Program-made: the position numbers and the translations under genes
In this document: positions 3,185 through 29,173 of the stretch, piece after piece
How the letters are laid out: each line of letters begins with the position of its first letter
Numbering within the stretch: position 1 is the stretch's first letter
Assembly: GCF_000217795.1 (NCBI RefSeq)
Contig: NC_015681.1
Location: 641,244-673,243 of the forward strand
DNA: 32,000 nucleotides
Reading direction: 5' to 3'
Source: Thermodesulfatator indicus DSM 15286
Lineage (GTDB): Bacteria > Desulfobacterota > Thermodesulfobacteria > Thermodesulfobacteriales > Thermodesulfatatoraceae
Notes under the pieces: model-generated
What the model saw: only the letters and a program-made list of their open reading frames with translations
Told to the model about the DNA's origin: nothing
The model's database searches: none

Positions 3185-4674
3185 TTTTGCTCTGGCCTGA
3201 GATGAGGAAAAAGGATAACCTCCCTTATTGAGGGTGAATCAGTAAAAAGCATAACTACCCTATCAATACCAATTCCTTCTCCAGCAGCTGGGGGCATGCC
3301 ATATTCCAGAGCCCGAATAAAATCTTCGTCTATCTCTGGGTGAATCTCCGGATCATCCTTTAAGCGGCGTTTAATTTGCTCTTCAAAGCGTGCCCGTTGA
3401 TCCCGAGGGTCATTAAGTTCAGAGAAGGCGTTGGCTATCTCTCGCCCGGCAATAAATAACTCAAAGCGGTCGGCTACGCTTGGGTCTTTTTCATTACGCC
3501 TGGCAAGAGGTGAAATATCTACTGGGAAAGCAATGATAAAAGTAGGTTGAATAAGCTCAGGTTCAACCAGGGCGTCAAAGAGTTTGGCCCAAAGTTTACC
3601 CAGCACAGGCTCACGTTCATCAATCTTTATTTCTTTTTCTCGGGCAAAAGCAATAACTTTTTCGCGATCATCAAGGACTTCTTCAGGCACACCACCAATA
3701 TCTATCAAGGCCTGTTTGAAGGGAATTTTAGGCCAAGGAGGAGTAAAATCTATTTCCTGGCCCTGATAAACGATTTTTGTATCACCTTTTAACTCACGGG
3801 CTAGACCTACAAATATTTCTTCCGTGCGAGTCATCAGGTCTTCATAAGTGGCATAGGCCTCATAAAACTCTAGCATAGTAAATTCAGGATTGTGTTGAAT
3901 GGATATACCCTCATTTCGGAAATTGCGATTAAGCTCAAAGACTCTCTCAAAACCTCCCACCAAGAGGCGCTTTAAATAAAGTTCTGGGGCAATGCGGAGA
4001 TAAAGTTCTCTTTCAAGGGCGTGGTGATAGGTTTTAAAAGGTCTAGCCGTAGCTCCCCCAGGAATTGGCTGCATCATCGGGGTTTCTACTTCAAGGAACC
4101 CCTGAGAAGAAAAATAACGCCTAAAATACTCAACGATTCGGGTACGAGTACGAAAAATCTCCCTTACCCGCTCATTCATAATAAGATCCAGGTAACGGCG
4201 ACGATAGCGAAGTTCAACGTCCTGAAGACCGTGGTATTTTTCAGGCAGAGGCCTTAAGGCTTTGGTTACCAGCACTACCTCTTTGGCCAGGATAGTTAAC
4301 TCACCGGTTTTAGTTTTAAAAAGAGAGCCTTCTACCCCGATTATGTCGCCCAGGTCAAAATATTTTTTGAAAAGCTTAAATTTTTCTGCTCCTAGTTCGT
4401 CTCTCTTAATGAAAACCTGTATGCGGCCAGTCTCATCTTGAATATGGATAAACATGGCCTTACCAAAATCGCGACGAGCCATAAGACGCCCAGCCACTTT
4501 GAACGTGGCCTCAAGTTTCTCAAGCTCCTCTGGCTGGTAATCTCCAAATATTTCTTTTATTGCACCGGCTTTGTCTTCAGGCTTGAACTGGTTTGGAAAA
4601 AGGGGGACACCCTGAGACTCAAGCTCTTCGGCCTTTTCACGTCTTACTTTTAATACCTGGCTTTCCTCGCTCAC
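3181..4674 (-). CDS. lysS: Lysine--tRNA ligase, class II
   Basis: 497-aa ORF with a GTG start at 4674 preceded by GGAGG. Class II core motifs are present (PGGATARPFKTYH, NRNFRNEGIS, GEGIGIDRVVMLF), with an N-terminal OB-fold-like anticodon-binding region. Confidence 0.95.
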   Translation of the reverse strand: MSEESQVLKVRREKAEELESQGVPLFPNQFKPEDKAGAIKEIFGDYQPEELEKLEATFKVAGRLMARRDFGKAMFIHIQDETGRIQVFIKRDELGAEKFKLFKKYFDLGDIIGVEGSLFKTKTGELTILAKEVVLVTKALRPLPEKYHGLQDVELRYRRRYLDLIMNERVREIFRTRTRIVEYFRRYFSSQGFLEVETPMMQPIPGGATARPFKTYHHALERELYLRIAPELYLKRLLVGGFERVFELNRNFRNEGISIQHNPEFTMLEFYEAYATYEDLMTRTEEIFVGLARELKGDTKIVYQGQEIDFTPPWPKIPFKQALIDIGGVPEEVLDDREKVIAFAREKEIKIDEREPVLGKLWAKLFDALVEPELIQPTFIIAFPVDISPLARRNEKDPSVADRFELFIAGREIANAFSELNDPRDQRARFEEQIKRRLKDDPEIHPEIDEDFIRALEYGMPPAAGEGIGIDRVVMLFTDSPSIREVILFPHLRPEQK

Positions 4675-4743
4675 AAAAAACCTCCGTTACTCTTTGTTGA
4701 GGCGAAAGATAACGCCCTTATTAAATCTCGCAAAGGGGCAAAT

Positions 4744-6255
4744 TTAGCCAAATAGTTTTTTCTGGCGGGCCTTAGGTTTAGTTTTGGAAGACTTTTCTTT
4801 TATGGGCAGTGTTTCAAAAAAAGGGCTCACTTTTCCTGAAAGCTTGTGGCCATAAAGAAAGCGACCTGTTTTAACCTGAGTAAAGTAAAAGCTCTCCTGA
4901 GCCCGGGTTACGGCTACATAAGCTACGCGCTTTTCCTCTGCTAGGTCGTAATCTTCCAAAAGGGTAAACGGAAGAAGACCATCTTCAGCCCCAACAAGAA
5001 TTACAACCTTGAACTCAAGACCTTTGGCCTCATGAATAGTAAGAAGAGGTACCCCGTCTTTTCTTATAGAAATACTCGCAAAGGTTTTTAGCATCTCTAG
5101 ACGAAACAAAAAGCCTTCTAAAGATTGACTTTCTAGCCAGGCCTCCTTTACTGAAGAAGGACCTTCAGCCAGATATGCCTCTAACTCTTTTAAGCTCTTA
5201 ATACTTTTAGCTATATCGCTTAGGCTCTCAATAGCAGAAATTTCTTCTTTCAAGTTTTCTGAAGGCACTTGAAAAGGGATACCAAACTTAATAAAGGCCT
5301 CTTTTATCGGATTGAGTAAGGTTCGTACCCTTGATAAGATCGCTATTTCAGGAGGAGCAAGCCCTCTTTGGCTGGCCTCCATCTGGAGACCACCTAACAA
5401 TTCGCTAACTAACTTGGCCACTCCTTTGGCCTCATTAAATGGCTTGTTAAAAGAAAGCCCTAAACGATTTCCACCCTTTTGCACAGCCTCAAGAGGCTCT
5501 AAAGGGAAACCTTGAGTTTCTCTAAGAGTCTCCGCAAAGTTAAGGACCTTTTCCGGTACCCGATAGCTTTTTTTGAGAAAATATATTTGAGGGGCAAGAT
5601 AATCTACAAATTCTTTTATTACTTGGGGACAGGCCCCACGAAAACCGTATATAGCCTGGGCAGGATCACCTACCAGAAAAAATTCGGCCTTGGTAAAAGT
5701 TTTTAAAAACGAAGTAAGCTCCGGGTTAAGGTCCTGAAATTCGTCTATCAAAAGATAAACCTTTTCTTGTTGTAGATAATGCCCCGTAGCTTCTTTTAAC
5801 AAGAGAGAAAAATCGTAAAGACCATGTAATTTTAAGGCCTCTTCCCAGAGAGAACGATAATGGTTTTCGCCTTTATCTAAGGCCTTTCTAAAATCCTTGA
5901 GGGAAAGGCCCTTACGCTTAGAAAGGTCTCTCGCTAAGGCCTTTAATTCTTCTTCTGTGGCCAAACGCGGCTTAATGCCTTTTGCTTTTAAAAGATCGTA
6001 GGCAAGGGCGTGAAAGGTATCTACCTTTACTCCTTTGATACCTATTGAGGCCAGCCTTTCTTTTAATTCCTGTGTGGTTTTAATAGTAAAGGTAAGAATT
6101 AAAACTTTCTCAGGATCAATCCCTTGTTCAAGCAAATGAATGGCTTTGGCTAAAAGAACTCTAGTTTTACCGGCTCCAGGACCAGCTACAACTAAAGTAT
6201 TGCCTTTGGCCTTAACCGCTTGCTCCTGATACTGATCAAGAGAGATTGACGTCAT
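4744..6255 (-). CDS. UvrD/Rep/PcrA-family superfamily-1 DNA helicase, short form
   Basis: 503-aa ORF with Walker A AGPGAGKTR, motif II IDEFQDLN, GDPAQAIYGFRGA, TIHEAKGLEF and motif VI AVTRAQESFYF. It is clearly shorter than canonical UvrD/PcrA. Confidence 0.8.
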   Translation of the reverse strand: MTSISLDQYQEQAVKAKGNTLVVAGPGAGKTRVLLAKAIHLLEQGIDPEKVLILTFTIKTTQELKERLASIGIKGVKVDTFHALAYDLLKAKGIKPRLATEEELKALARDLSKRKGLSLKDFRKALDKGENHYRSLWEEALKLHGLYDFSLLLKEATGHYLQQEKVYLLIDEFQDLNPELTSFLKTFTKAEFFLVGDPAQAIYGFRGACPQVIKEFVDYLAPQIYFLKKSYRVPEKVLNFAETLRETQGFPLEPLEAVQKGGNRLGLSFNKPFNEAKGVAKLVSELLGGLQMEASQRGLAPPEIAILSRVRTLLNPIKEAFIKFGIPFQVPSENLKEEISAIESLSDIAKSIKSLKELEAYLAEGPSSVKEAWLESQSLEGFLFRLEMLKTFASISIRKDGVPLLTIHEAKGLEFKVVILVGAEDGLLPFTLLEDYDLAEEKRVAYVAVTRAQESFYFTQVKTGRFLYGHKLSGKVSPFFETLPIKEKSSKTKPKARQKKLFG

Positions 6256-11654: not shown

Positions 11655-13062
11655 CTTTCGGACGTTTAATTTCCACTCTAAGGATTATCTCTTGTTTTCC
11701 ATTAGGAGGAAGATTAAAGCGCCATATAACCTTGCCATCAGGATGTTTTTCCTGCCAGGGAGGATTAGCCTGTGCTTTGATTTTTACTTCTTTTTTTCGG
11801 CTTATTGGCACTTTATCTATGATTTCCAGGTCAAAAGGCCTATCATAGTGGTTGATAAACACAGTTTTTACCTCGCGCAAGCGGGTCTTCTTACCGAAAA
11901 AGCTATCTCCTTTGACATCCTTTAGGACAACCCGTTTTATTTCAATAAGAGAGGCTGGCCCGAAATAAACTTTTTGACTTATACCGGGATTTAAGGGGCC
12001 GATTTCCCCCTCCCCTACGAGAGCTCCATCCAGGTAAAAACGGGCCTTTAATCGAGGAAAACTCCTGTCAGGAATTAGGTCCGCCCTGAAAAAGGCTTTA
12101 TTTACCGCATAAACCGGTGCTTCTAAAAGGAATTTTTCAACTTTAAATGTTTCTTCACCCAGAGAAATAGCAGTTGGCTTACCTGAAGGTAAGTCAACAT
12201 AAGAGACTGTTACCCTTTCCCAAATATTTCCTGGAGACTTTTCTCTTTTTATTTCTTTTACGGCCTCTACAGTCTTTCGTAAAAGGAGCTTAGGCCGAGG
12301 AGAAAATTCATCTACTATCCAGGGAGTAAAGGGAGGAGGTTTTAGCACAGCAAAATCTTCCCCACGGGGATAAAAGATTATCTTTACTCCAGGCCAAGAG
12401 TTACCGCTCTTTTGGGTAATTAAACCCATGGCCCTGAGAAAGAGTTCTTTATCCTGGGTATTTAGTAAACATTCATAATTTTCGCGCCAGGAGATGAGCT
12501 TTCCAGCAGGATAGCGCACTTGAAAGCTCCCCTGCCCTTTTACCTGAATTATTAACGCTGAGGTGTTAAGAGAAACTATTTGACTTTCAAGTTCTTTAAG
12601 CTGTTTTTTTAGTGTTTCTCTCTCTTTTTCTTTGGCAAGCTTAGCTATAAAAAGCTTTTTCCACACCTGGTGATAGCTTTCAAAAACCTGCGGGGAAGGC
12701 GTTTCTCTCTTTCCTTTTAAGGCGTCTTCAACCAGAGATATTTCTCGGTTCAAGGTCTCTATATCTCTTTCTAAGGCATCAAGTTTTTCTCTGAGTTTTT
12801 TTACATTAAGACTTAGAAGATCTTTTTTGGAAACTTTTTCAAGAGAAATGGAGATGAGCCTTAATCCCGAAGAGGCCCTAAAATTTATTTCCTCAGGTGA
12901 GACTTCTTTGGCCAGAATCAGACGGTTAAGCCCGGCTTTTAAAGGGAATTCTTCTACGATAAAAATTTTATGCTGGTAAATCTCTATTTCTTTTACTTTG
13001 GCTTTAGCAGAACTAGGCAGAATAATTATTATTAGAAAATAGACCCAAAAAAGCTTTTTCAC
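11647..13062 (-). CDS. Secreted DUF4139/DUF4140 (MuiA-like) protein with central coiled coil
   Basis: 471-aa ORF with a GTG start and a signal peptide (MKKLFWVYFLIIIILPSSAKA). A long heptad-like K/E/L region sits in the middle (LREKLDALERDIETLNREISLVEDAL ... LKKQLKELESQI). The C-terminal beta-rich region (ARFYLDGALVGEGEIGPL ... FDLEIIDKVPISRKKEVKIK ... GKVIWRFNLPPNGKQEIILRVEI) matches my memory of the DUF4139 family. No HMM was run. Confidence 0.6.
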   Translation of the reverse strand: MKKLFWVYFLIIIILPSSAKAKVKEIEIYQHKIFIVEEFPLKAGLNRLILAKEVSPEEINFRASSGLRLISISLEKVSKKDLLSLNVKKLREKLDALERDIETLNREISLVEDALKGKRETPSPQVFESYHQVWKKLFIAKLAKEKERETLKKQLKELESQIVSLNTSALIIQVKGQGSFQVRYPAGKLISWRENYECLLNTQDKELFLRAMGLITQKSGNSWPGVKIIFYPRGEDFAVLKPPPFTPWIVDEFSPRPKLLLRKTVEAVKEIKREKSPGNIWERVTVSYVDLPSGKPTAISLGEETFKVEKFLLEAPVYAVNKAFFRADLIPDRSFPRLKARFYLDGALVGEGEIGPLNPGISQKVYFGPASLIEIKRVVLKDVKGDSFFGKKTRLREVKTVFINHYDRPFDLEIIDKVPISRKKEVKIKAQANPPWQEKHPDGKVIWRFNLPPNGKQEIILRVEIKRPKDE

Positions 13063-21279: not shown

Positions 21280-21426
21280 TTGAAAAAATTTTTTAAGTTT
21301 GTTTTTTTATACTTTAAAAACAGCCCTTGGTATATGTGGGTAATACGTATCGGATTAGCTTTACTTTTATTTAAACTTTTTATGTGGTCTCAAAAGCTAG
21401 GTCAAATATCCAAAGGTGGGGGCTAA
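21280..21426 (+). CDS. Candidate 48-aa small membrane protein (below the ORF-track size cut-off)
   Basis: A TTG start lies 8 nt downstream of AAGGAG. The translation is (M)KKFFKFVFLYFKNSPWYMWVIRIGLALLLFKLFMWSQKLGQISKGGG, with one hydrophobic helix. Its stop lies in the loop of the downstream terminator hairpin. There is no homology evidence. Confidence 0.25.
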   Translation: MKKFFKFVFLYFKNSPWYMWVIRIGLALLLFKLFMWSQKLGQISKGGG

Positions 21427-21448
21427 AACCCCCACCATCTATTTTCTT
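21406..21448. terminator. Bidirectional rho-independent terminator between hpt (+) and the sulfur-relay operon (-)
   Basis: A perfect 8-bp GC-rich stem, GGTGGGGG (21415-21422) / CCCCCACC (21429-21436), has a 6-nt loop. It is followed by ATCTATTTTCTT on the plus strand and by TTTGGATATTT on the minus strand. Confidence 0.7.
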
Positions 21449-21626
21449 ACCACCAACTTATAGTCTTATCCGCCTCAAAGATTAATTGTATCAGTTTGTC
21501 ATAGTCCTGATCTTCTTTAGCTTCATAAAGTTTAAACTCAAGAGCTTCATTTCCTTCATTCAATATAGCTACCAACTTTTTTACTTCTTCGTTTGGTTCA
21601 GTTCTATATACATGGAGAATTTTCAT
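21447..21626 (-). CDS. Small conserved hypothetical protein, last gene of the YedE-TusA cluster
   Basis: The track ORF starts at 21632 (MHMKIL...), but that ATG is only 1 nt from AAGGAGG. The ATG at 21626 (MKILHVYRTEPNEEVKKLVAILNEGNEALEFKLYEAKEDQDYDKLIQLIFEADKTISWW) has 7-nt spacing. I recognise no named domain. Confidence 0.6.
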   Translation of the reverse strand: MKILHVYRTEPNEEVKKLVAILNEGNEALEFKLYEAKEDQDYDKLIQLIFEADKTISWW

Positions 21627-21645
21627 GTGCATACCTCCTTACCAA

Positions 21646-22014
21646 TTAATCAGCACAAGCTGGTGGTGGATCATGTTTTTGTTTAGGCAGGCCATATGGA
21701 ATAACAACATCAGCTTCTTTTAATTTTTGAGCCAGTTCTTCAAGGGTAATAGGTGTAAGGCCTGCTTCCTCGATATTGTATTTTTTAGCTTCTTCGTCTT
21801 CTATAGTATCCACTACACAATAAACTTCTCCTTCCATATCGCGAATCCACTCAATGTTTTCTTTTACGTAATCATTAAGCTTGGGCATTTTTTGGTAAAA
21901 AATGCAAGCATGAGAATAGTGATTCTCAATAGCCTGTCCTAAAGTTGATCGTATAGCATCGGTAATATAAATACGATTGGCTATCAAAAAATATATTTTC
22001 AAACTTTCACTCAT
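21646..22014 (-). CDS. Conserved hypothetical protein, possibly DsrE/F/H-fold, with C-terminal Pro-rich Cys tail
   Basis: 122-aa ORF with AAGGAGG 6 nt upstream. LKIYFLIAN ... EVYCVVDTIEDEEAKKYNI ... ADVVIPYG resembles the DsrF/DsrH strand-helix pattern. It ends in KHDPPPACAD. Confidence 0.65.
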   Translation of the reverse strand: MSESLKIYFLIANRIYITDAIRSTLGQAIENHYSHACIFYQKMPKLNDYVKENIEWIRDMEGEVYCVVDTIEDEEAKKYNIEEAGLTPITLEELAQKLKEADVVIPYGLPKQKHDPPPACAD

Positions 22015-22026
22015 AGTCGCCTCCTT

Positions 22027-22359
22027 TTAAAGGACTATATATTTACCACATTGAGAAAGAAGCTCCCCATGAAAGGCTTGGGTACGCATCTGTTTAGGGC
22101 TCATACCAGCGGGAATATCTGTATCTACATCAAAACCTTCACACACATAAGAATCTGCACAAATTGCCAGGTCTTCTTCGGGAACCATTTTTACTAACTT
22201 GGCAAATTCAGAATGTTTGGTAAGATGGATGGCCTTGAAGGTGAGAAATATTTTTACTTTTTTACCGGCTCTTTGAGCCGCTTCAACTATCTTCATTAAA
22301 TGGGTCATATATTGAGGATTAGTAACAAAAATCCCCAGCTTATCCGGATCTTTAGACAT
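22027..22359 (-). CDS. DsrE/DsrF-like sulfur-relay family protein
   Basis: 110-aa ORF with AAGGAGG upstream. KLGIFVTNP ... KVKIFLTFKAIHL ... LAICADSYVCEGFDV ... GKYIVL fits the DsrE/TusD-like fold pattern. The call is by motif recognition only. Confidence 0.65.
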   Translation of the reverse strand: MSKDPDKLGIFVTNPQYMTHLMKIVEAAQRAGKKVKIFLTFKAIHLTKHSEFAKLVKMVPEEDLAICADSYVCEGFDVDTDIPAGMSPKQMRTQAFHGELLSQCGKYIVL

Positions 22360-22382
22360 AAAAGCACCTCCTTTTTAGAAAA

Positions 22383-22643
22383 TTATCCGCCCTTTTTAAT
22401 ATAGAAGCGTATGAAACCAGCATCTTCTCTTTCGCCTAAATATTCGTGACCAGCTCTTTCGCACCATCCAGGAAGGTCATTTCTTGAGCCAGGGTCAGTA
22501 CCCAACACCTCTAATATCTGTCCTTTTTCCATCTTTTGGATAGCCTTTTTGGTCTTAAGCAAAGGCATAGGACAGGAAAGACCTTTACAATCTAAAGTAA
22601 CATCTGCTTTGATCCCTTCGGGAGCTACTTTTACATCAGCCAT
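22383..22643 (-). CDS. tusA: TusA/SirA-family sulfurtransferase
   Basis: 86-aa ORF with AAGGAGGAGG upstream. The conserved Cys motif DCKGLSCPMPLLKTKKAI and the two-layer alpha/beta length are typical of TusA. Confidence 0.85.
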   Translation of the reverse strand: MADVKVAPEGIKADVTLDCKGLSCPMPLLKTKKAIQKMEKGQILEVLGTDPGSRNDLPGWCERAGHEYLGEREDAGFIRFYIKKGG

Positions 22644-22681
22644 AATTCTTCCTCCTCCTTTATTTGGATTTATTTGTTTAT

Positions 22682-23848
22682 TTACATTTCTATTACAAAT
22701 TTATTTGAATCTTCATTCCAGTCGATAATTATATACCAGAGCACACAAATAAAAGTTATTAAGAATAAAGTCCCACCATAACCTAGATACTCTGGCATAA
22801 ATATAGCCTTACCTAAATAACCATTTTCTATTACTTCATATTCAGCGAAATAATGTCTTATAAGGGAGTTAGAAAGAGCAAAAAATATTACAACAACCCA
22901 AAGCTTTATCTGTCCTTCAGCTACTCTCCAGAGAGCTCCTGAACCACAACCACCTGCCACAACCATAGCTGCTCCAAAAATAAAACCTCCAAGTAAAGCT
23001 CCTAAACCAAAAGTAGGGGTTACATATACCATTTCTGGACGAATTTCTTGATATTTGAGAATAGAAACTCCAATAGCTCCCAATATAATACTAACCATTA
23101 CAGCTTTACCCATAGAAGCCTCACCAGTAACAAAGGGCTCTCTAAAACCGTTAACCATACAAAAACGGCTACGATGTATTACATATCCAATACCAGCTGT
23201 AATAATGAGACAACCACCTAAGATCTCACCATTATCCATATCGCTGTTAAAATAGGCATAAGTAGCAACTATTAAGCCTACAAATAGTAAAAACCCAATA
23301 TAAGGGCCAACTTTCTTGAAGCTTATTTCAAAACCACCTGAGCTGGGAAAACGTTCAAGCTCCCAGTAAAGATATTTAACACCTAAAATTACACCAAAAA
23401 CTAAACCTACCGCCATCAAAAATCCGTTGGCCGCAAGATTTTGAATAGCCACGTAGAAACCACCTACATTACATCCCATAGCCAGAGCCGAACCCAAACC
23501 CATCAGAATACCGGCTATAATAGCTTTTACGTATTCGATCTTGGGAGGAAAACGCAGACCAAATTCACGGGCAAAGAAGGCGGAAATGGCCGCCCCCCAT
23601 ATATAACCAATATTTAATACAGAAGACGAAAACTCTAGAGGATGTGGGGGGGCTTCATCATAAAAACCTATACCGTAAAAAAACCAGTCTGCCCAATTTC
23701 TTATACCACCTACAATCCCCCATGGGCGGTACCACATTTCTAAAAAAATAGCAAATAAGGCCAACAATATGCCGCCCATCATAGGAGACCAGGTACTCAC
23801 CGCGAAGGACCTCCAGCTTCTAGAAATGGCTTCTTTGAAGTCAGACAT
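22682..23848 (-). CDS. YedE/YeeE-family sulfur-compound transporter
   Basis: 388-aa polytopic membrane ORF with GGAGGGAGG upstream. It has three Cys in Gly-rich membrane motifs (LAMGCNVGG, RFCMVNG, AGGCGSGALW) and is encoded directly upstream of tusA. Confidence 0.85.
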   Translation of the reverse strand: MSDFKEAISRSWRSFAVSTWSPMMGGILLALFAIFLEMWYRPWGIVGGIRNWADWFFYGIGFYDEAPPHPLEFSSSVLNIGYIWGAAISAFFAREFGLRFPPKIEYVKAIIAGILMGLGSALAMGCNVGGFYVAIQNLAANGFLMAVGLVFGVILGVKYLYWELERFPSSGGFEISFKKVGPYIGFLLFVGLIVATYAYFNSDMDNGEILGGCLIITAGIGYVIHRSRFCMVNGFREPFVTGEASMGKAVMVSIILGAIGVSILKYQEIRPEMVYVTPTFGLGALLGGFIFGAAMVVAGGCGSGALWRVAEGQIKLWVVVIFFALSNSLIRHYFAEYEVIENGYLGKAIFMPEYLGYGGTLFLITFICVLWYIIIDWNEDSNKFVIEM

Positions 23849-24252
23849 ACATGACCTCCCTCCAAATTATATTTCTTTACTATAAAATACCAGGCTCTAA
23901 TGTTGCCTATCAAAACTGAATAAAACTGTCAAATTCTTTGAATATAGAAAAAACTATTTTAATCTCCGAAATAAAAAGTTTTTTTCTTTCTGTCTATGAT
24001 AATCTTGCCAAAAGGCAAAATGTGAAGTTTGTTTTAAAAAAACACAACTAAATTATTAATGTGAACATAGAAAAACAGATGACAATTTATGGACATTTTT
24101 ATTCGGTCATGGCAAGCGCTAAAGTGACGAAACAATCCCATAAGCTTACCGAGGCGGCTATGTCGCCTCGCGATAATATTTTGTTGTACAAAAACATCCG
24201 GCTCAATAGTTTGAGAAAATTTTAAGTTTTTGAGCAATTTAAGGGGTTTATT

Positions 24253-27028: not shown

Positions 27029-27334
27029 CTAGGGGTTATACATTTTAAAGGTTTCGTGTAAAGATTGAGCAATAGCTGAAAGGACAGCCAGCCATATAGC
27101 CAATTTGATACCGCTTTTTAAAGGAAAAGGTTGTTTTAAAAATTTGCGACAGATACCAGAAAACATGTAAGCCATAACACCACTATAAAAAAAGAAACTA
27201 AAAACCCACCTGAAAGACTCATAAATAGTTCTTTCGAGGTTTTCAGGATAATAGCGAATACTGAAAAGAATGCACAGAATAATTCCCGAAAAAAGGTATA
27301 TTTTTTCTTTTAAGGTAAAAGAGGGCCAATTCAT
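27029..27334 (-). CDS. Small hypothetical membrane protein (about 3 TM helices)
   Basis: 101-aa ORF whose start overlaps the DUF364 gene stop by 4 nt (ATGA). It has three hydrophobic segments (IYLFSGIILCILFSI, WVFSFFFYSGVMAYMFSGI, IKLAIWLAVLSAIA). I recognise no domain. Confidence 0.55.
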   Translation of the reverse strand: MNWPSFTLKEKIYLFSGIILCILFSIRYYPENLERTIYESFRWVFSFFFYSGVMAYMFSGICRKFLKQPFPLKSGIKLAIWLAVLSAIAQSLHETFKMYNP

Positions 27335-28095
27335 TCTAATCTTAAGTTTACTTTTTCCACGTAAGGTTTAAAAGCCTTGGTACCTTTTGCTTCACTTACC
27401 AGGGTTAAAATCTTTTCATCTTTTACTAGCAGGCCAGAAAGGATGGTTATCGGTGTATCCCTGAAGGCTTCGGGAAACAAAGGAGTGCTAGGCCCTAGAA
27501 GAATTACTTCTCGTGGTTTATGCAAATATTCAAAAATTTCTTCAAGGGTTTTATTTATAAGGGTAACCGAGGTAATTATAGCTACAGTGGCCTGGGGCAA
27601 AAGGTCAAACATATCACTTTCGCGAAGAGTTTCCGCGTGTCTAGCTGGATTTCTTTCAAATATCCATAGTTCCGCCACTTTATTTCTCAATTTTTGTGCC
27701 AGAGGTTCAAAATAACCCACCATAGCCACTCTATCTTCAGAAGTTATCGTGGCAAGTTTTAAAGGATCTCCCAAAAGATAGTCTTCTCTAGGATTATTCA
27801 AAATGGCATTTATAGTGGCTAACCCCACTCCCGCTTCTAACAGATTAGCCGAAAGGAAATACTTAGCCACTACGTCAGCAGGTTTCCCTGCAAAACTAAC
27901 TTCTGGCGGCAGTATATTACAACTCAGTTTTTCTTCTAAAATGGTATAGCCCAAACCTATTTGGCCGCTATCAAGCTTTACGGCTGTATAACCAAGACCG
28001 AGGCGCACGTCATCTATCATGCGTCCTCGGCCTTGGGAAAGGGCTTTTTCTAAAAGGCGTTCGTAAATATTCATCTTAGGATTTTTTAAGGCCAC
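27331..28095 (-). CDS. DUF364/DUF4213 (putative metal-chelation Rossmann-like) protein
   Basis: 254-aa ORF. VRLGLGYTAVKLDSGQIGLGYT ... VAMVGYFEPL ... AIITSVTLINKTL matches the DUF4213+DUF364 pattern as I remember it. The start is uncertain: GTG 28095 overlaps mrp by 20 nt, and an alternative ATG at 28074 sits just after the mrp stop. Confidence 0.7.
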   Translation of the reverse strand: MALKNPKMNIYERLLEKALSQGRGRMIDDVRLGLGYTAVKLDSGQIGLGYTILEEKLSCNILPPEVSFAGKPADVVAKYFLSANLLEAGVGLATINAILNNPREDYLLGDPLKLATITSEDRVAMVGYFEPLAQKLRNKVAELWIFERNPARHAETLRESDMFDLLPQATVAIITSVTLINKTLEEIFEYLHKPREVILLGPSTPLFPEAFRDTPITILSGLLVKDEKILTLVSEAKGTKAFKPYVEKVNLRLE

Positions 28096-29173
28096 AGCTT
28101 CCCATCTTCTCGAACTCTAGAGACTGAGTAGCTATTTTTTCAGCTATCTCTCCAAAGACTTTACCTAATTCACTTTCAGGATCAAGGGCTGCTGGTTTTC
28201 CAATTTCACCACTTTTGGAAAGATTTGGATCTAGTGGCACCTTGCCAAGCAAAGGTACTCTCAGATCTTTTGCTAGTTTCTCTCCTCCCCCTTCACCAAA
28301 AACAGGGATGACCTGCTCCTTACCATCTGGGCCTACTGTTTTGAGGTAGGACATGTTCTCTACAATACCAAAAATCCTGGTACCAAGTTCATTGAACATG
28401 TTTATGGAACGAACCACATCAGATAGCGCCACTTTTTGAGGCGTGGTAACAATGACCACTCCTCTTAAAGGGAAGACCTGAGCCACGGTTAAAGGTGCGT
28501 CACCAGTTCCAGGGGGTAGGTCAATTACTAAGAAATCAAGAACACCCCAGTCCACAGCTTCAGCAAGTTCTGAAAGGGCCCGATGTACCAAAGGACCACG
28601 CCAAATGATGGCCTGCCCTTCAGGAGCCAAAAATCCGAAGGACATGACTTTAATACCCCAGCGCTCAGGAGGTACCAAAAGATTATCTCTGGTAAAAGGT
28701 CTTTCACCTTGAAGTCCCATAAGCAAAGGGACATTGGGACCATAAATATCAGCGTCAAGGATTCCCACTTTATAGCCTTTTTTAGCAAGAGCCACCGCCA
28801 GGTTCACAGACACCGTGGTCTTACCTACTCCACCTTTACCACTGGCCACGGCAATAATATGTCTTATGTCTTTTAAGGCCTTTTTCTCAGGAACTTTCTT
28901 TTTACCGAGAATTTTTTCACGTTCTTCAGGGGTCATAGTAGTCAGTTCAACATCTACTTCTTTTACCCCTGGAACTTCAGAAACAGCTTTTTTGACATCA
29001 CCAGCAATACGACCTTTCATAGGGCAGCCGGCTATAGTTAAAGCCACTACTACCTTTACCTTGTCACCATCAATTTTTACATCTCGAATCATTCCCAAAT
29101 CTACCAGACTACGGCCAAGCTCGGGATCTTTAACCTTTTTGAGAACCTCCATTATCTCTTCACGCGTTGGCAT
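28076..29173 (-). CDS. mrp: Mrp/ApbC/NBP35-family Fe-S cluster carrier ATPase with N-terminal DUF59 (MIP18) domain
   Basis: 365-aa ORF with AGGAGG upstream. It has a DUF59-like N-terminus (VLKKVKDPELGRSLVDLGMIRDV), the deviant Walker A VASGKGGVGKTTVS, and DLPPGTGD. Confidence 0.9.
   Translation of the reverse strand: MPTREEIMEVLKKVKDPELGRSLVDLGMIRDVKIDGDKVKVVVALTIAGCPMKGRIAGDVKKAVSEVPGVKEVDVELTTMTPEEREKILGKKKVPEKKALKDIRHIIAVASGKGGVGKTTVSVNLAVALAKKGYKVGILDADIYGPNVPLLMGLQGERPFTRDNLLVPPERWGIKVMSFGFLAPEGQAIIWRGPLVHRALSELAEAVDWGVLDFLVIDLPPGTGDAPLTVAQVFPLRGVVIVTTPQKVALSDVVRSINMFNELGTRIFGIVENMSYLKTVGPDGKEQVIPVFGEGGGEKLAKDLRVPLLGKVPLDPNLSKSGEIGKPAALDPESELGKVFGEIAEKIATQSLEFEKMGSCGLKKS

Follow-up and report, generated by a model that had tools for sequence, protein, structure and literature searches.

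In the thermophilic sulfate reducer Thermodesulfatator indicus DSM 15286 we analysed a stretch of 32,000 nucleotides (hereafter the window; contig NC_015681.1, positions 641,244 to 673,243) and found five closely spaced genes on its minus strand at positions 21447-23848. We assign these genes, with a probability of about 0.9, to a yeeE/yedE-tusA-dsrE-dsrF-dsrH type II operon, formerly described as the YTD cluster. Both the system and this locus are already known from literature of 2026. Under this assignment the genes are as follows, with lengths given in amino acids (aa).

22682-23848, minus strand: yedE/yeeE-like sulfur transporter, a membrane protein of 388 aa and the first gene of the cluster (Pfam Sulf_transp, E=6e-48)
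22383-22643, minus strand: tusA sulfurtransferase, 86 aa, active-site motif GLSCPMP (Pfam TusA, E=6e-27)
22027-22359, minus strand: dsrE type II (ORF110), 110 aa, Thein_0623
21646-22014, minus strand: dsrF type II (ORF122), 122 aa, Thein_0622, 'Chp1' of the YTD cluster
21447-21632, minus strand: dsrH type II (ORF61, 61 aa from the first ATG), Thein_0621, 'Chp2'
21447-21626, minus strand: dsrH type II as read from the second ATG, 59 aa, no cysteine, end ISWW, 100% identical to Thein_0621

Identity of the gene cluster

The three small open reading frames (ORFs) downstream of tusA are real genes and not chance ORFs, because their products match Thein_0621, Thein_0622 and Thein_0623 exactly, a GGAGG-type ribosome-binding site precedes each of them, and the gene order yeeE-tusA-E-F-H recurs in 83 loci. 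These loci comprise 80 species genomes (one genome per GTDB species) and three cable-bacterial contigs. Of the 83, 80 had tusA upstream of the trio, 79 yielded an upstream gene of the DsrE type, and 78 a downstream gene whose product ends in WW, the remainder being mostly contig ends. Synteny of the yedE/yeeE gene was likewise kept in related loci, and its product scored below the cut-offs of the NCBIfam models for YedE/FdhT and TsuA. An earlier reading of the window from its letters and ORFs only (hereafter the sequence-only reading) had placed three small genes after tusA at 21447-22359; we found all of them there, together with every motif it quoted (KLGIFVTNP, LAICADSYVCEG, KHDPPPACAD and others). 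The NCBI label of the three T. indicus proteins is 'hypothetical protein'.

Homologues of ORF110 were found in Thermosulfurimonas, Dissulfuribacter, Caldimicrobium, Desulfobulbus and cable bacteria. These hosts therefore led us to suspect the YTD cluster of sulfur disproportionators, which the literature confirmed. A study in BMC Genomics of March 2026 modelled the DsrE-like protein, Chp1 and Chp2 as a DsrEFH-like double heterotrimer (PMC13047784). The trio owes its name DsrEFH type II to Plum-Jensen et al. (ISME J, May 2026; PMC13293266), who relied on structure prediction as well as biochemistry, found its genes in 985 genomes, and purified the complex of Electronema aureum GS in a 1:1:1 ratio, both as trimer and as hexamer. 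In their in vitro assays persulfidated TusA loaded DsrE, a Cys67Ser exchange abolished this loading, and sulfur passed unidirectionally from DsrE to DsrC. Their supplementary Table S5 enters Thermodesulfatator indicus DSM 15286 (GCF_000217795) as 'YeeE-TusA-DsrEFH type II', and the name has already been taken up by a later paper. The sequence-only reading had arrived at a DsrE/F/H-like set fed by TusA, and the two 2026 papers concur with it for orthologues; its statement that such an architecture had not been described is outdated by the entry that names this very strain.

A DsrEFH type II set is defined by adjacent genes for an E subunit of ~110 aa, an F subunit of ~95-120 aa and an H subunit of ~57-63 aa, in bacteria typically beside tusA and yeeE/yedE. 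This arrangement of three adjacent small genes beside tusA and yedE/yeeE is present at 21447-23848. The trio of a Candidatus (Ca.) Electronema genome, which belongs to the same genus and does not represent the GS-strain sequences themselves, showed identities of 64.5% for E, 54.8% for F and 61.4% for H. The published masses of two GS subunits, 12725 and 6814 Da, lie close to the 12700-12712 and 6810 Da of the compared Ca. Electronema sequences. Gene content, synteny, orthology, the invariant Cys67 of DsrE and a DsrE/F-like fold of ORF122 are observations made on the T. indicus locus itself.

By orthology with the cable-bacterial proteins we infer complex formation, the sulfur-transfer steps and their physiological direction in T. 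indicus. A reduced sulfur species would enter via the YeeE/YedE-like membrane protein, be carried as a persulfide on TusA, and be passed to Cys67 of the 110-aa DsrE. This subunit would form a 1:1:1 heterotrimer (and hexamer) with the 122-aa DsrF-like and the 59-aa DsrH-like proteins. After DsrE the next acceptor would be DsrC, which carries substrate for dissimilatory sulfite reductase and would take up the sulfur on its C-terminal arm.

Several observations weigh against this assignment or parts of it. The authors of PMC13047784 viewed the complex as a structural analogue and not an orthologue of DsrEFH. Scans of Pfam and NCBIfam gave no DsrE, DsrF or DsrH match above cut-off for any member of the trio, and no DsrEFH or TusBCD chain came up when PDB sequences were searched with profiles of the DsrE-II and DsrF-II families. 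Probabilities stayed under 1% when the E, F and H alignments were compared pairwise with hhalign, and paralogy of the subunits is therefore not demonstrable from sequence. Foldseek searches of the 59-aa model against the PDB returned generic Rossmann-like fragments only (best E=0.15). The window holds no dsr gene and its other genes are housekeeping genes. Finally, the literature describes T. indicus as a sulfate reducer only, and the oxidative role that was suggested for cable bacteria may not hold for it.

The likeness to the cable-bacterial system extends to the operon yeeE-tusA-E-F-H, to protein sizes (110, 115-122 and 57-59 aa), to the invariant DsrE Cys67 and to a DsrF tail of the form LPKQ..PPPAC[A/S][D/E]. 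In contrast to the sulfide-oxidizing cable bacteria, T. indicus is a thermophilic sulfate reducer. Its DsrH is devoid of cysteine, where Electronema has VCWW, and its DsrE is without Cys59.

A different physiological role, in which the operon serves thiosulfate or sulfur disproportionation, by processing its products, instead of sulfur oxidation and the complex accepts sulfur from a thiosulfate-decomposing pair of the YeeE/YeeD type, appears rather unlikely to us for T. indicus. The YTD cluster was proposed as a marker of disproportionation, its proteins rise under thiosulfate disproportionation in Desulfolithobacter, many carriers such as Thermosulfurimonas, Dissulfuribacter and Caldimicrobium disproportionate, and Thermodesulfatator atlanticus disproportionates elemental sulfur (S0). 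However, the genes were reported in only 25 of 63 cultured disproportionators while many non-disproportionating sulfate reducers carry them, and thiosulfate did not persulfidate cable-bacterial TusA, DsrEFH type II or DsrC (PMC13293266). Use of S0, thiosulfate or sulfite by T. indicus has moreover not been reported, and the TusA of the window scored 18.5 bits against a TsuB/YeeD model with a cut-off of 147.5. A role in disproportionation thus keeps some support, which the published distribution data weaken.

According to a published proposal, DsrEFH type II enables organisms whose DsrAB is of the reductive type to channel sulfur into the Dsr pathway oxidatively, which would make the boundaries between sulfate reducers, sulfur disproportionators and sulfide oxidizers less sharp. 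Our analysis adds no new system, as DsrEFH type II is published and its T. indicus locus already listed under the strain's name. What remains as new is modest and consists of a fixed-length, cysteine-tipped tail of DsrF and of co-varying cysteine patterns in DsrE and DsrH.

The three subunits of DsrEFH type II

ORF110 showed a whole-length match to Pfam DsrE (E=0.034; 14.7 bits vs a cut-off of 22.7). Below-cut-off matches to DrsE_2 (16) and DsrE (10) were also obtained among 51 ORF110 orthologues. Cys67 (22159-22161; ..LAICADS..), the published active site (PMC13293266) and the residue that the sequence-only reading had singled out in ICADSYVC, proved invariant in 121/121 close homologues and in 79/79 loci for which DsrE was recovered. 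Cys73 (22141-22143) was equally present in 121/121 close homologues and Cys104 (22048-22050; ..QCGKYIVL) in 120/121. Cys104 is replaced by Val in the tail-bearing Caldimicrobium group and by Tyr in the near tail-less clade (loci concerned: L018-L026, L048, L053 and L057). A metal or iron-sulfur (Fe-S) site made of Cys73, Cys104 and Cys120 of DsrF is unsupported, given the Val in the Caldimicrobium group and the masses of recombinant orthologues, which match the unmodified proteins.

Public databases name the homologues of DsrE type II inconsistently and probably incorrectly. The names include 'Peroxiredoxin', 'peroxiredoxin family protein', 'cobalamin B12-binding domain-containing protein' and 'pterin-4a-carbinolamine dehydratase'. 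Taken at face value, such names would make the 110-aa protein a peroxiredoxin or B12-binding protein, with unrelated hypothetical proteins encoded by the two smaller ORFs. We consider this extremely improbable. Besides the names themselves, a marginal match of ORF110 to the Pfam B12-binding domain (E=0.086) speaks for it, but only 37 residues are covered by this match, whose score of 13 bits falls short of the cut-off of 32, and no peroxiredoxin family was matched by ORF110 or its orthologues in Pfam and NCBIfam scans. The strict synteny with tusA and yeeE and the biochemical characterization of the orthologous complex as a sulfurtransferase (PMC13293266) also argue against it. Taken together, the weak match, the synteny and the characterized orthologue effectively refute an annotation as peroxiredoxin or B12-binding protein.

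For ORF122, which matched no Pfam family, an AlphaFold2 model of alternating strands and helices was obtained with a pLDDT score of 93.7 (predicted local distance difference test). The top four Foldseek hits of this model in the PDB were DsrE/DsrF-like proteins, namely 3mc3 (E=8e-4, template modelling score 0.63), 3pnx, 2fb6 and 2qs7, and the body of ORF122 is, according to the model, of the DsrE/DsrF-like fold. The sequence-only reading had called for such a comparison and its expectation for the 122-aa protein is borne out. The cysteine of VYCVV, which is residue 66 of ORF122 and whose conservation the sequence-only reading had wished to see tested, occurs in 11/68 homologues only, and Cys37 in 12/68. 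With this degree of conservation we rejected a functional role for either cysteine.

The start of dsrH is most likely the second ATG (21626), resulting in a protein of 59 aa, since the ribosome-binding site AAGGAGGT (21640-21633) abuts the first ATG, every orthologue starts with MK[IL]LHVY, and Thein_0621 has 59 aa. The third ORF was correctly recognized by the sequence-only reading, with the lower end of its size range (59-61 aa) being the most likely one. AlphaFold2 predicted a strand-helix-strand-helix-strand arrangement for the 59-aa protein with a pLDDT of 95.6. Neither ORF122 nor ORF61 matched the Pfam families DsrE/DsrF or DsrH. The 59-aa protein would be the DsrH subunit by analogy with published heterotrimer models and co-purification, and not by its monomer fold. 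The earlier proposal that the whole trio has the DsrE/F/H fold thus holds for the 122-aa model and is hinted at by below-cut-off Pfam matches for the 110-aa protein, whereas the 59-aa protein is not assignable to DsrH by monomer fold alone. No cysteine was found in the 59-aa protein or in most of its close orthologues, and the Cys20 of type I DsrH is thus missing.

Natural fusions occur in the wider DsrF type II family. P0274 (191 aa) looks like a DsrE-DsrF fusion, P0255 (174 aa) looks like a DsrF-DsrH fusion with the end ..ITWW, and P0290 (156 aa) mixes pieces of all three subunits. The E-F and F-H fusions support a physical association of the subunits, as far as can be judged from sequence, and some of them may be artefacts of assembly or gene calling.

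With Allochromatium vinosum's type I DsrEFH (PDB 2HY5) the type II system has in common three small alpha/beta subunits that are presumably paralogous, an active DsrE cysteine behind the third strand, and a flow of sulfur from TusA and on to DsrC. In contrast, the published identity is below about 25%, the T. indicus trio has no Pfam family above cut-off, and the type II subunits are smaller, with a DsrH of ~59 aa in which the essential Cys20 is missing, as was also remarked in PMC13047784. The type II genes are further linked to yeeE-tusA and not to dsrAB, and they co-occur with reductive-type DsrAB. A cysteine-tipped tail on DsrF, as found in the clade of Thermodesulfatator and the cable bacteria, is another difference from type I.

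The TusBCD proteins of Escherichia coli, which act in the sulfur relay for 2-thiouridine of transfer RNA (tRNA), are heterohexameric DsrE/F/H-like carriers that receive sulfur from TusA and pass it to TusE of the DsrC family. The operon described here differs in that it shows no connection with tRNA-thiolation genes, that it is coupled with a sulfur transporter, and that it occurs in organisms of dissimilatory sulfur metabolism. A role in tRNA thiolation of the TusBCD type finds no supporting gene context.

The cysteine-tipped tail of DsrF and co-varying cysteines

Beyond its folded body the T. indicus DsrF carries a short C-terminal extension.

21649-21690, minus strand: DsrF C-terminal tail LPKQKHDPPPACAD, residues 109-122, with Cys120 at 21655-21657

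In the ORF122 model the pLDDT declines to 76 in this tail and then to 59 at the last residues. A cysteine was present in every tail that we found, amounting to 44/68 homologues, 72/83 loci and 108 of 143 unique DsrF type II sequences. In 104 of these 108 it is exactly the 12th residue after P-Y-G, which marks the end of the last strand. The surrounding residues vary, with 59 distinct tails containing one to five prolines (e.g. PPPACAD, PPPACSED, APPQCA, PPPDTCG, and LPSMCAD followed by an extension), and in 11 of the 44 tail-bearing homologues the tail cysteine is the sole cysteine of the protein. The proline-rich tail with a subterminal cysteine that the sequence-only reading had pointed out is hence real, conserved, and flexible in the model. 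One tail-bearing protein, P0218 (147 aa), has an internal duplication of ~30 residues, with ..ISLEELG.. occurring twice before the normal PYGLPKQTKEPPPACAE end.

Members of the wider family at the 50% cluster level have no tail and end in ..VIPF, and so do 80/80 metagenomic loci of a distant clade, which were found by a scan seeded with a four-sequence alignment of tail-less DsrF-II. The tail is therefore, as judged from these alignments, a derived feature of one large clade. The distant tail-less clade (L084-L163) has the gene order tusA-dsrF-dsrH-dsrE (31 loci TFHE, 6 FHE) and its DsrE shows the single-cysteine motif LAVCDVSFR...

The DsrF assayed by Plum-Jensen et al. very probably carries the tail, because its mass of 12725 Da is near the 12700-12712 Da of the tail-bearing Ca. 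Electronema sequences and it likewise has two cysteines. Those sequences comprise 115 aa and end in ..LPKQTNTPPPACAE. One of the two cysteines of the characterized protein was described as "one in an exposed position" (PMC13293266), and this is probably the tail cysteine. A conserved C-terminal tail is mentioned neither in the main texts of PMC13047784 and PMC13293266 nor in the supplement of the latter.

The DsrF tail also recalls the C-terminal arm of DsrC/TusE. DsrC sequences end in ..AGLPKPTGCV (1YX3, 1SAU and 2V4J chain C), and the DsrF tail starts with GLPK[Q/P], with some tails reading GLPKPSSPPPDTCG; it is likewise flexible in the model, and in most sequences its cysteine lies 1-3 residues before the C-terminus. 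In contrast to the DsrC arm it sits on a DsrE/F-fold body, its spacer is five residues longer and proline-rich, and there is no second cysteine ten residues upstream, the single tail cysteine of ORF122 being third from the end.

Cysteine patterns of the other subunits vary along with the tail. For 116 loci both dsrE and dsrF were readable, and the DsrF tail cysteine and DsrE Cys73 were both present in 68, both absent in 48 and discordant in none. DsrE of tail-less lineages reads ICVDSYK[N/K].GYD or LAVCDVSFR.. instead. Cys104 of DsrE partly goes along with them and is present in 58 of the 68 tail-bearing loci. In DsrH the third residue from the end (xWW) is Ser in 64/70 and Cys in 5/70 tail-bearing loci, versus Cys in 67/81 tail-less ones. 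These counts are phylogenetically non-independent and perhaps reflect one or two transitions, and they are suggestive and not proof.

A tentative interpretation of these patterns is that in type II complexes DsrE Cys67 must be complemented by a second thiol, and that the position of this thiol shifted between subunits in evolution. It may be the C-terminal cysteine of DsrH ('CWW') in tail-less lineages, and the DsrF tail cysteine together with DsrE Cys73 in the clade of Thermodesulfatator and the cable bacteria. The fixed-length polyproline tail with its GLPK start may then be a built-in relay, or a mimic in cis of the DsrC arm that gates the active site. As to the tail itself, the most likely role is that its cysteine, with DsrE Cys73, supplies a second thiol near the active site; that it works as a functional thiol arm is possible but doubtful.

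In the relay form, sulfur would move from DsrE Cys67, possibly via Cys73, to DsrF Cys120 on the flexible polyproline arm and from there to DsrC, and in the alternative form the arm would dock in the DsrE active site. Taken jointly, we regard the two forms as a minority possibility next to direct transfer from DsrE to DsrC. The persistence of the tail cysteine despite variable neighbours, its nearly fixed spacer, its occurrence as the only cysteine of some homologues and the low pLDDT of the tail are all consistent with an arm, as are the perfect co-occurrence with DsrE Cys73 and the anticorrelation with the 'CWW' cysteine of DsrH. Yet the co-occurrence probably represents one or two evolutionary transitions only, so that Fisher p-values overstate the support. 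The likeness of the tail start to the DsrC arm is similarly in favour, but it concerns a four-residue motif that was noticed post hoc. Whole tail-less clades, including the sulfide oxidizer Desulfurivibrio, function without such an arm.

The published biochemistry can be read in both directions. Polysulfide placed one sulfur onto DsrF, and DsrC still received sulfur from the Cys67Ser complex (PMC13293266); the lack in type II DsrH of the Cys20 that is essential in type I (PMC13047784) would also fit a thiol supplied from elsewhere. In the same assays, however, persulfidated TusA loaded DsrE and not DsrF, the Cys67Ser complex with persulfidated DsrF passed no sulfur to TusA, and the authors explained the signal on DsrF by an exposed cysteine being persulfidated non-specifically (PMC13293266). 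The proposal of the sequence-only reading that the tail accepts sulfur from TusA is therefore unsupported as stated, since the TusA persulfide failed to load DsrF, and the function of the proline-rich tail as an acceptor arm is unproven. If the second-thiol interpretation were true, the in vitro findings of 'non-specific' DsrF persulfidation and of Cys67-independent transfer to DsrC would reflect physiology. A functional tail would also mean that the published Cys67Ser results read differently, and it would define mechanistic subtypes of the complex.

Flanking regions and further observations

Two further features were located at the borders of the cluster.

21415-21436, no strand assigned: GC-rich hairpin between convergent gene ends, terminator-like GGTGGGGG-CTAAAA-CCCCCACC, 10 nucleotides past the dsrH stop codon
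23884-23913, minus strand: sigma-70-like promoter match before yedE, TTGATA-18-TATTTT with extended TG, a consensus match only

The hairpin is likely the terminator of the operon. Promoter-like matches were rarer here than in shuffled sequence. The intergenic region of ~400 base pairs (23849-24252) between the divergent yedE and M16 peptidase genes contains weak promoter-like matches only and gave no Rfam match; the operon may be regulated from here. Across the whole window, the Rfam and tRNA scans had no hits.

On the opposite side of the hairpin, a very hydrophobic ORF of 48 aa (21280-21426, plus strand; TTG start, end ..SKGGG) lies just after an hpt-like gene and enters the hairpin that it has in common with the convergent dsrH end. 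It could encode a small membrane protein or be a chance ORF. Elsewhere in the window a DUF364/DUF4213 protein ('putative heavy-metal chelation') adjoins an Fe-S cluster carrier ATPase of the Mrp/NUBPL type (27029-28095 and 28076-29173, minus strand) and an ORF of 101 aa without Pfam family, all of them unrelated to the sulfur operon. Among the related loci, that of a member of the Thermodesulfobacteriaceae (L018) has a second, longer YeeE/YedE-like gene (4609-6027; 466 aa) directly after dsrH, and its trio thus lies between two transporter genes.

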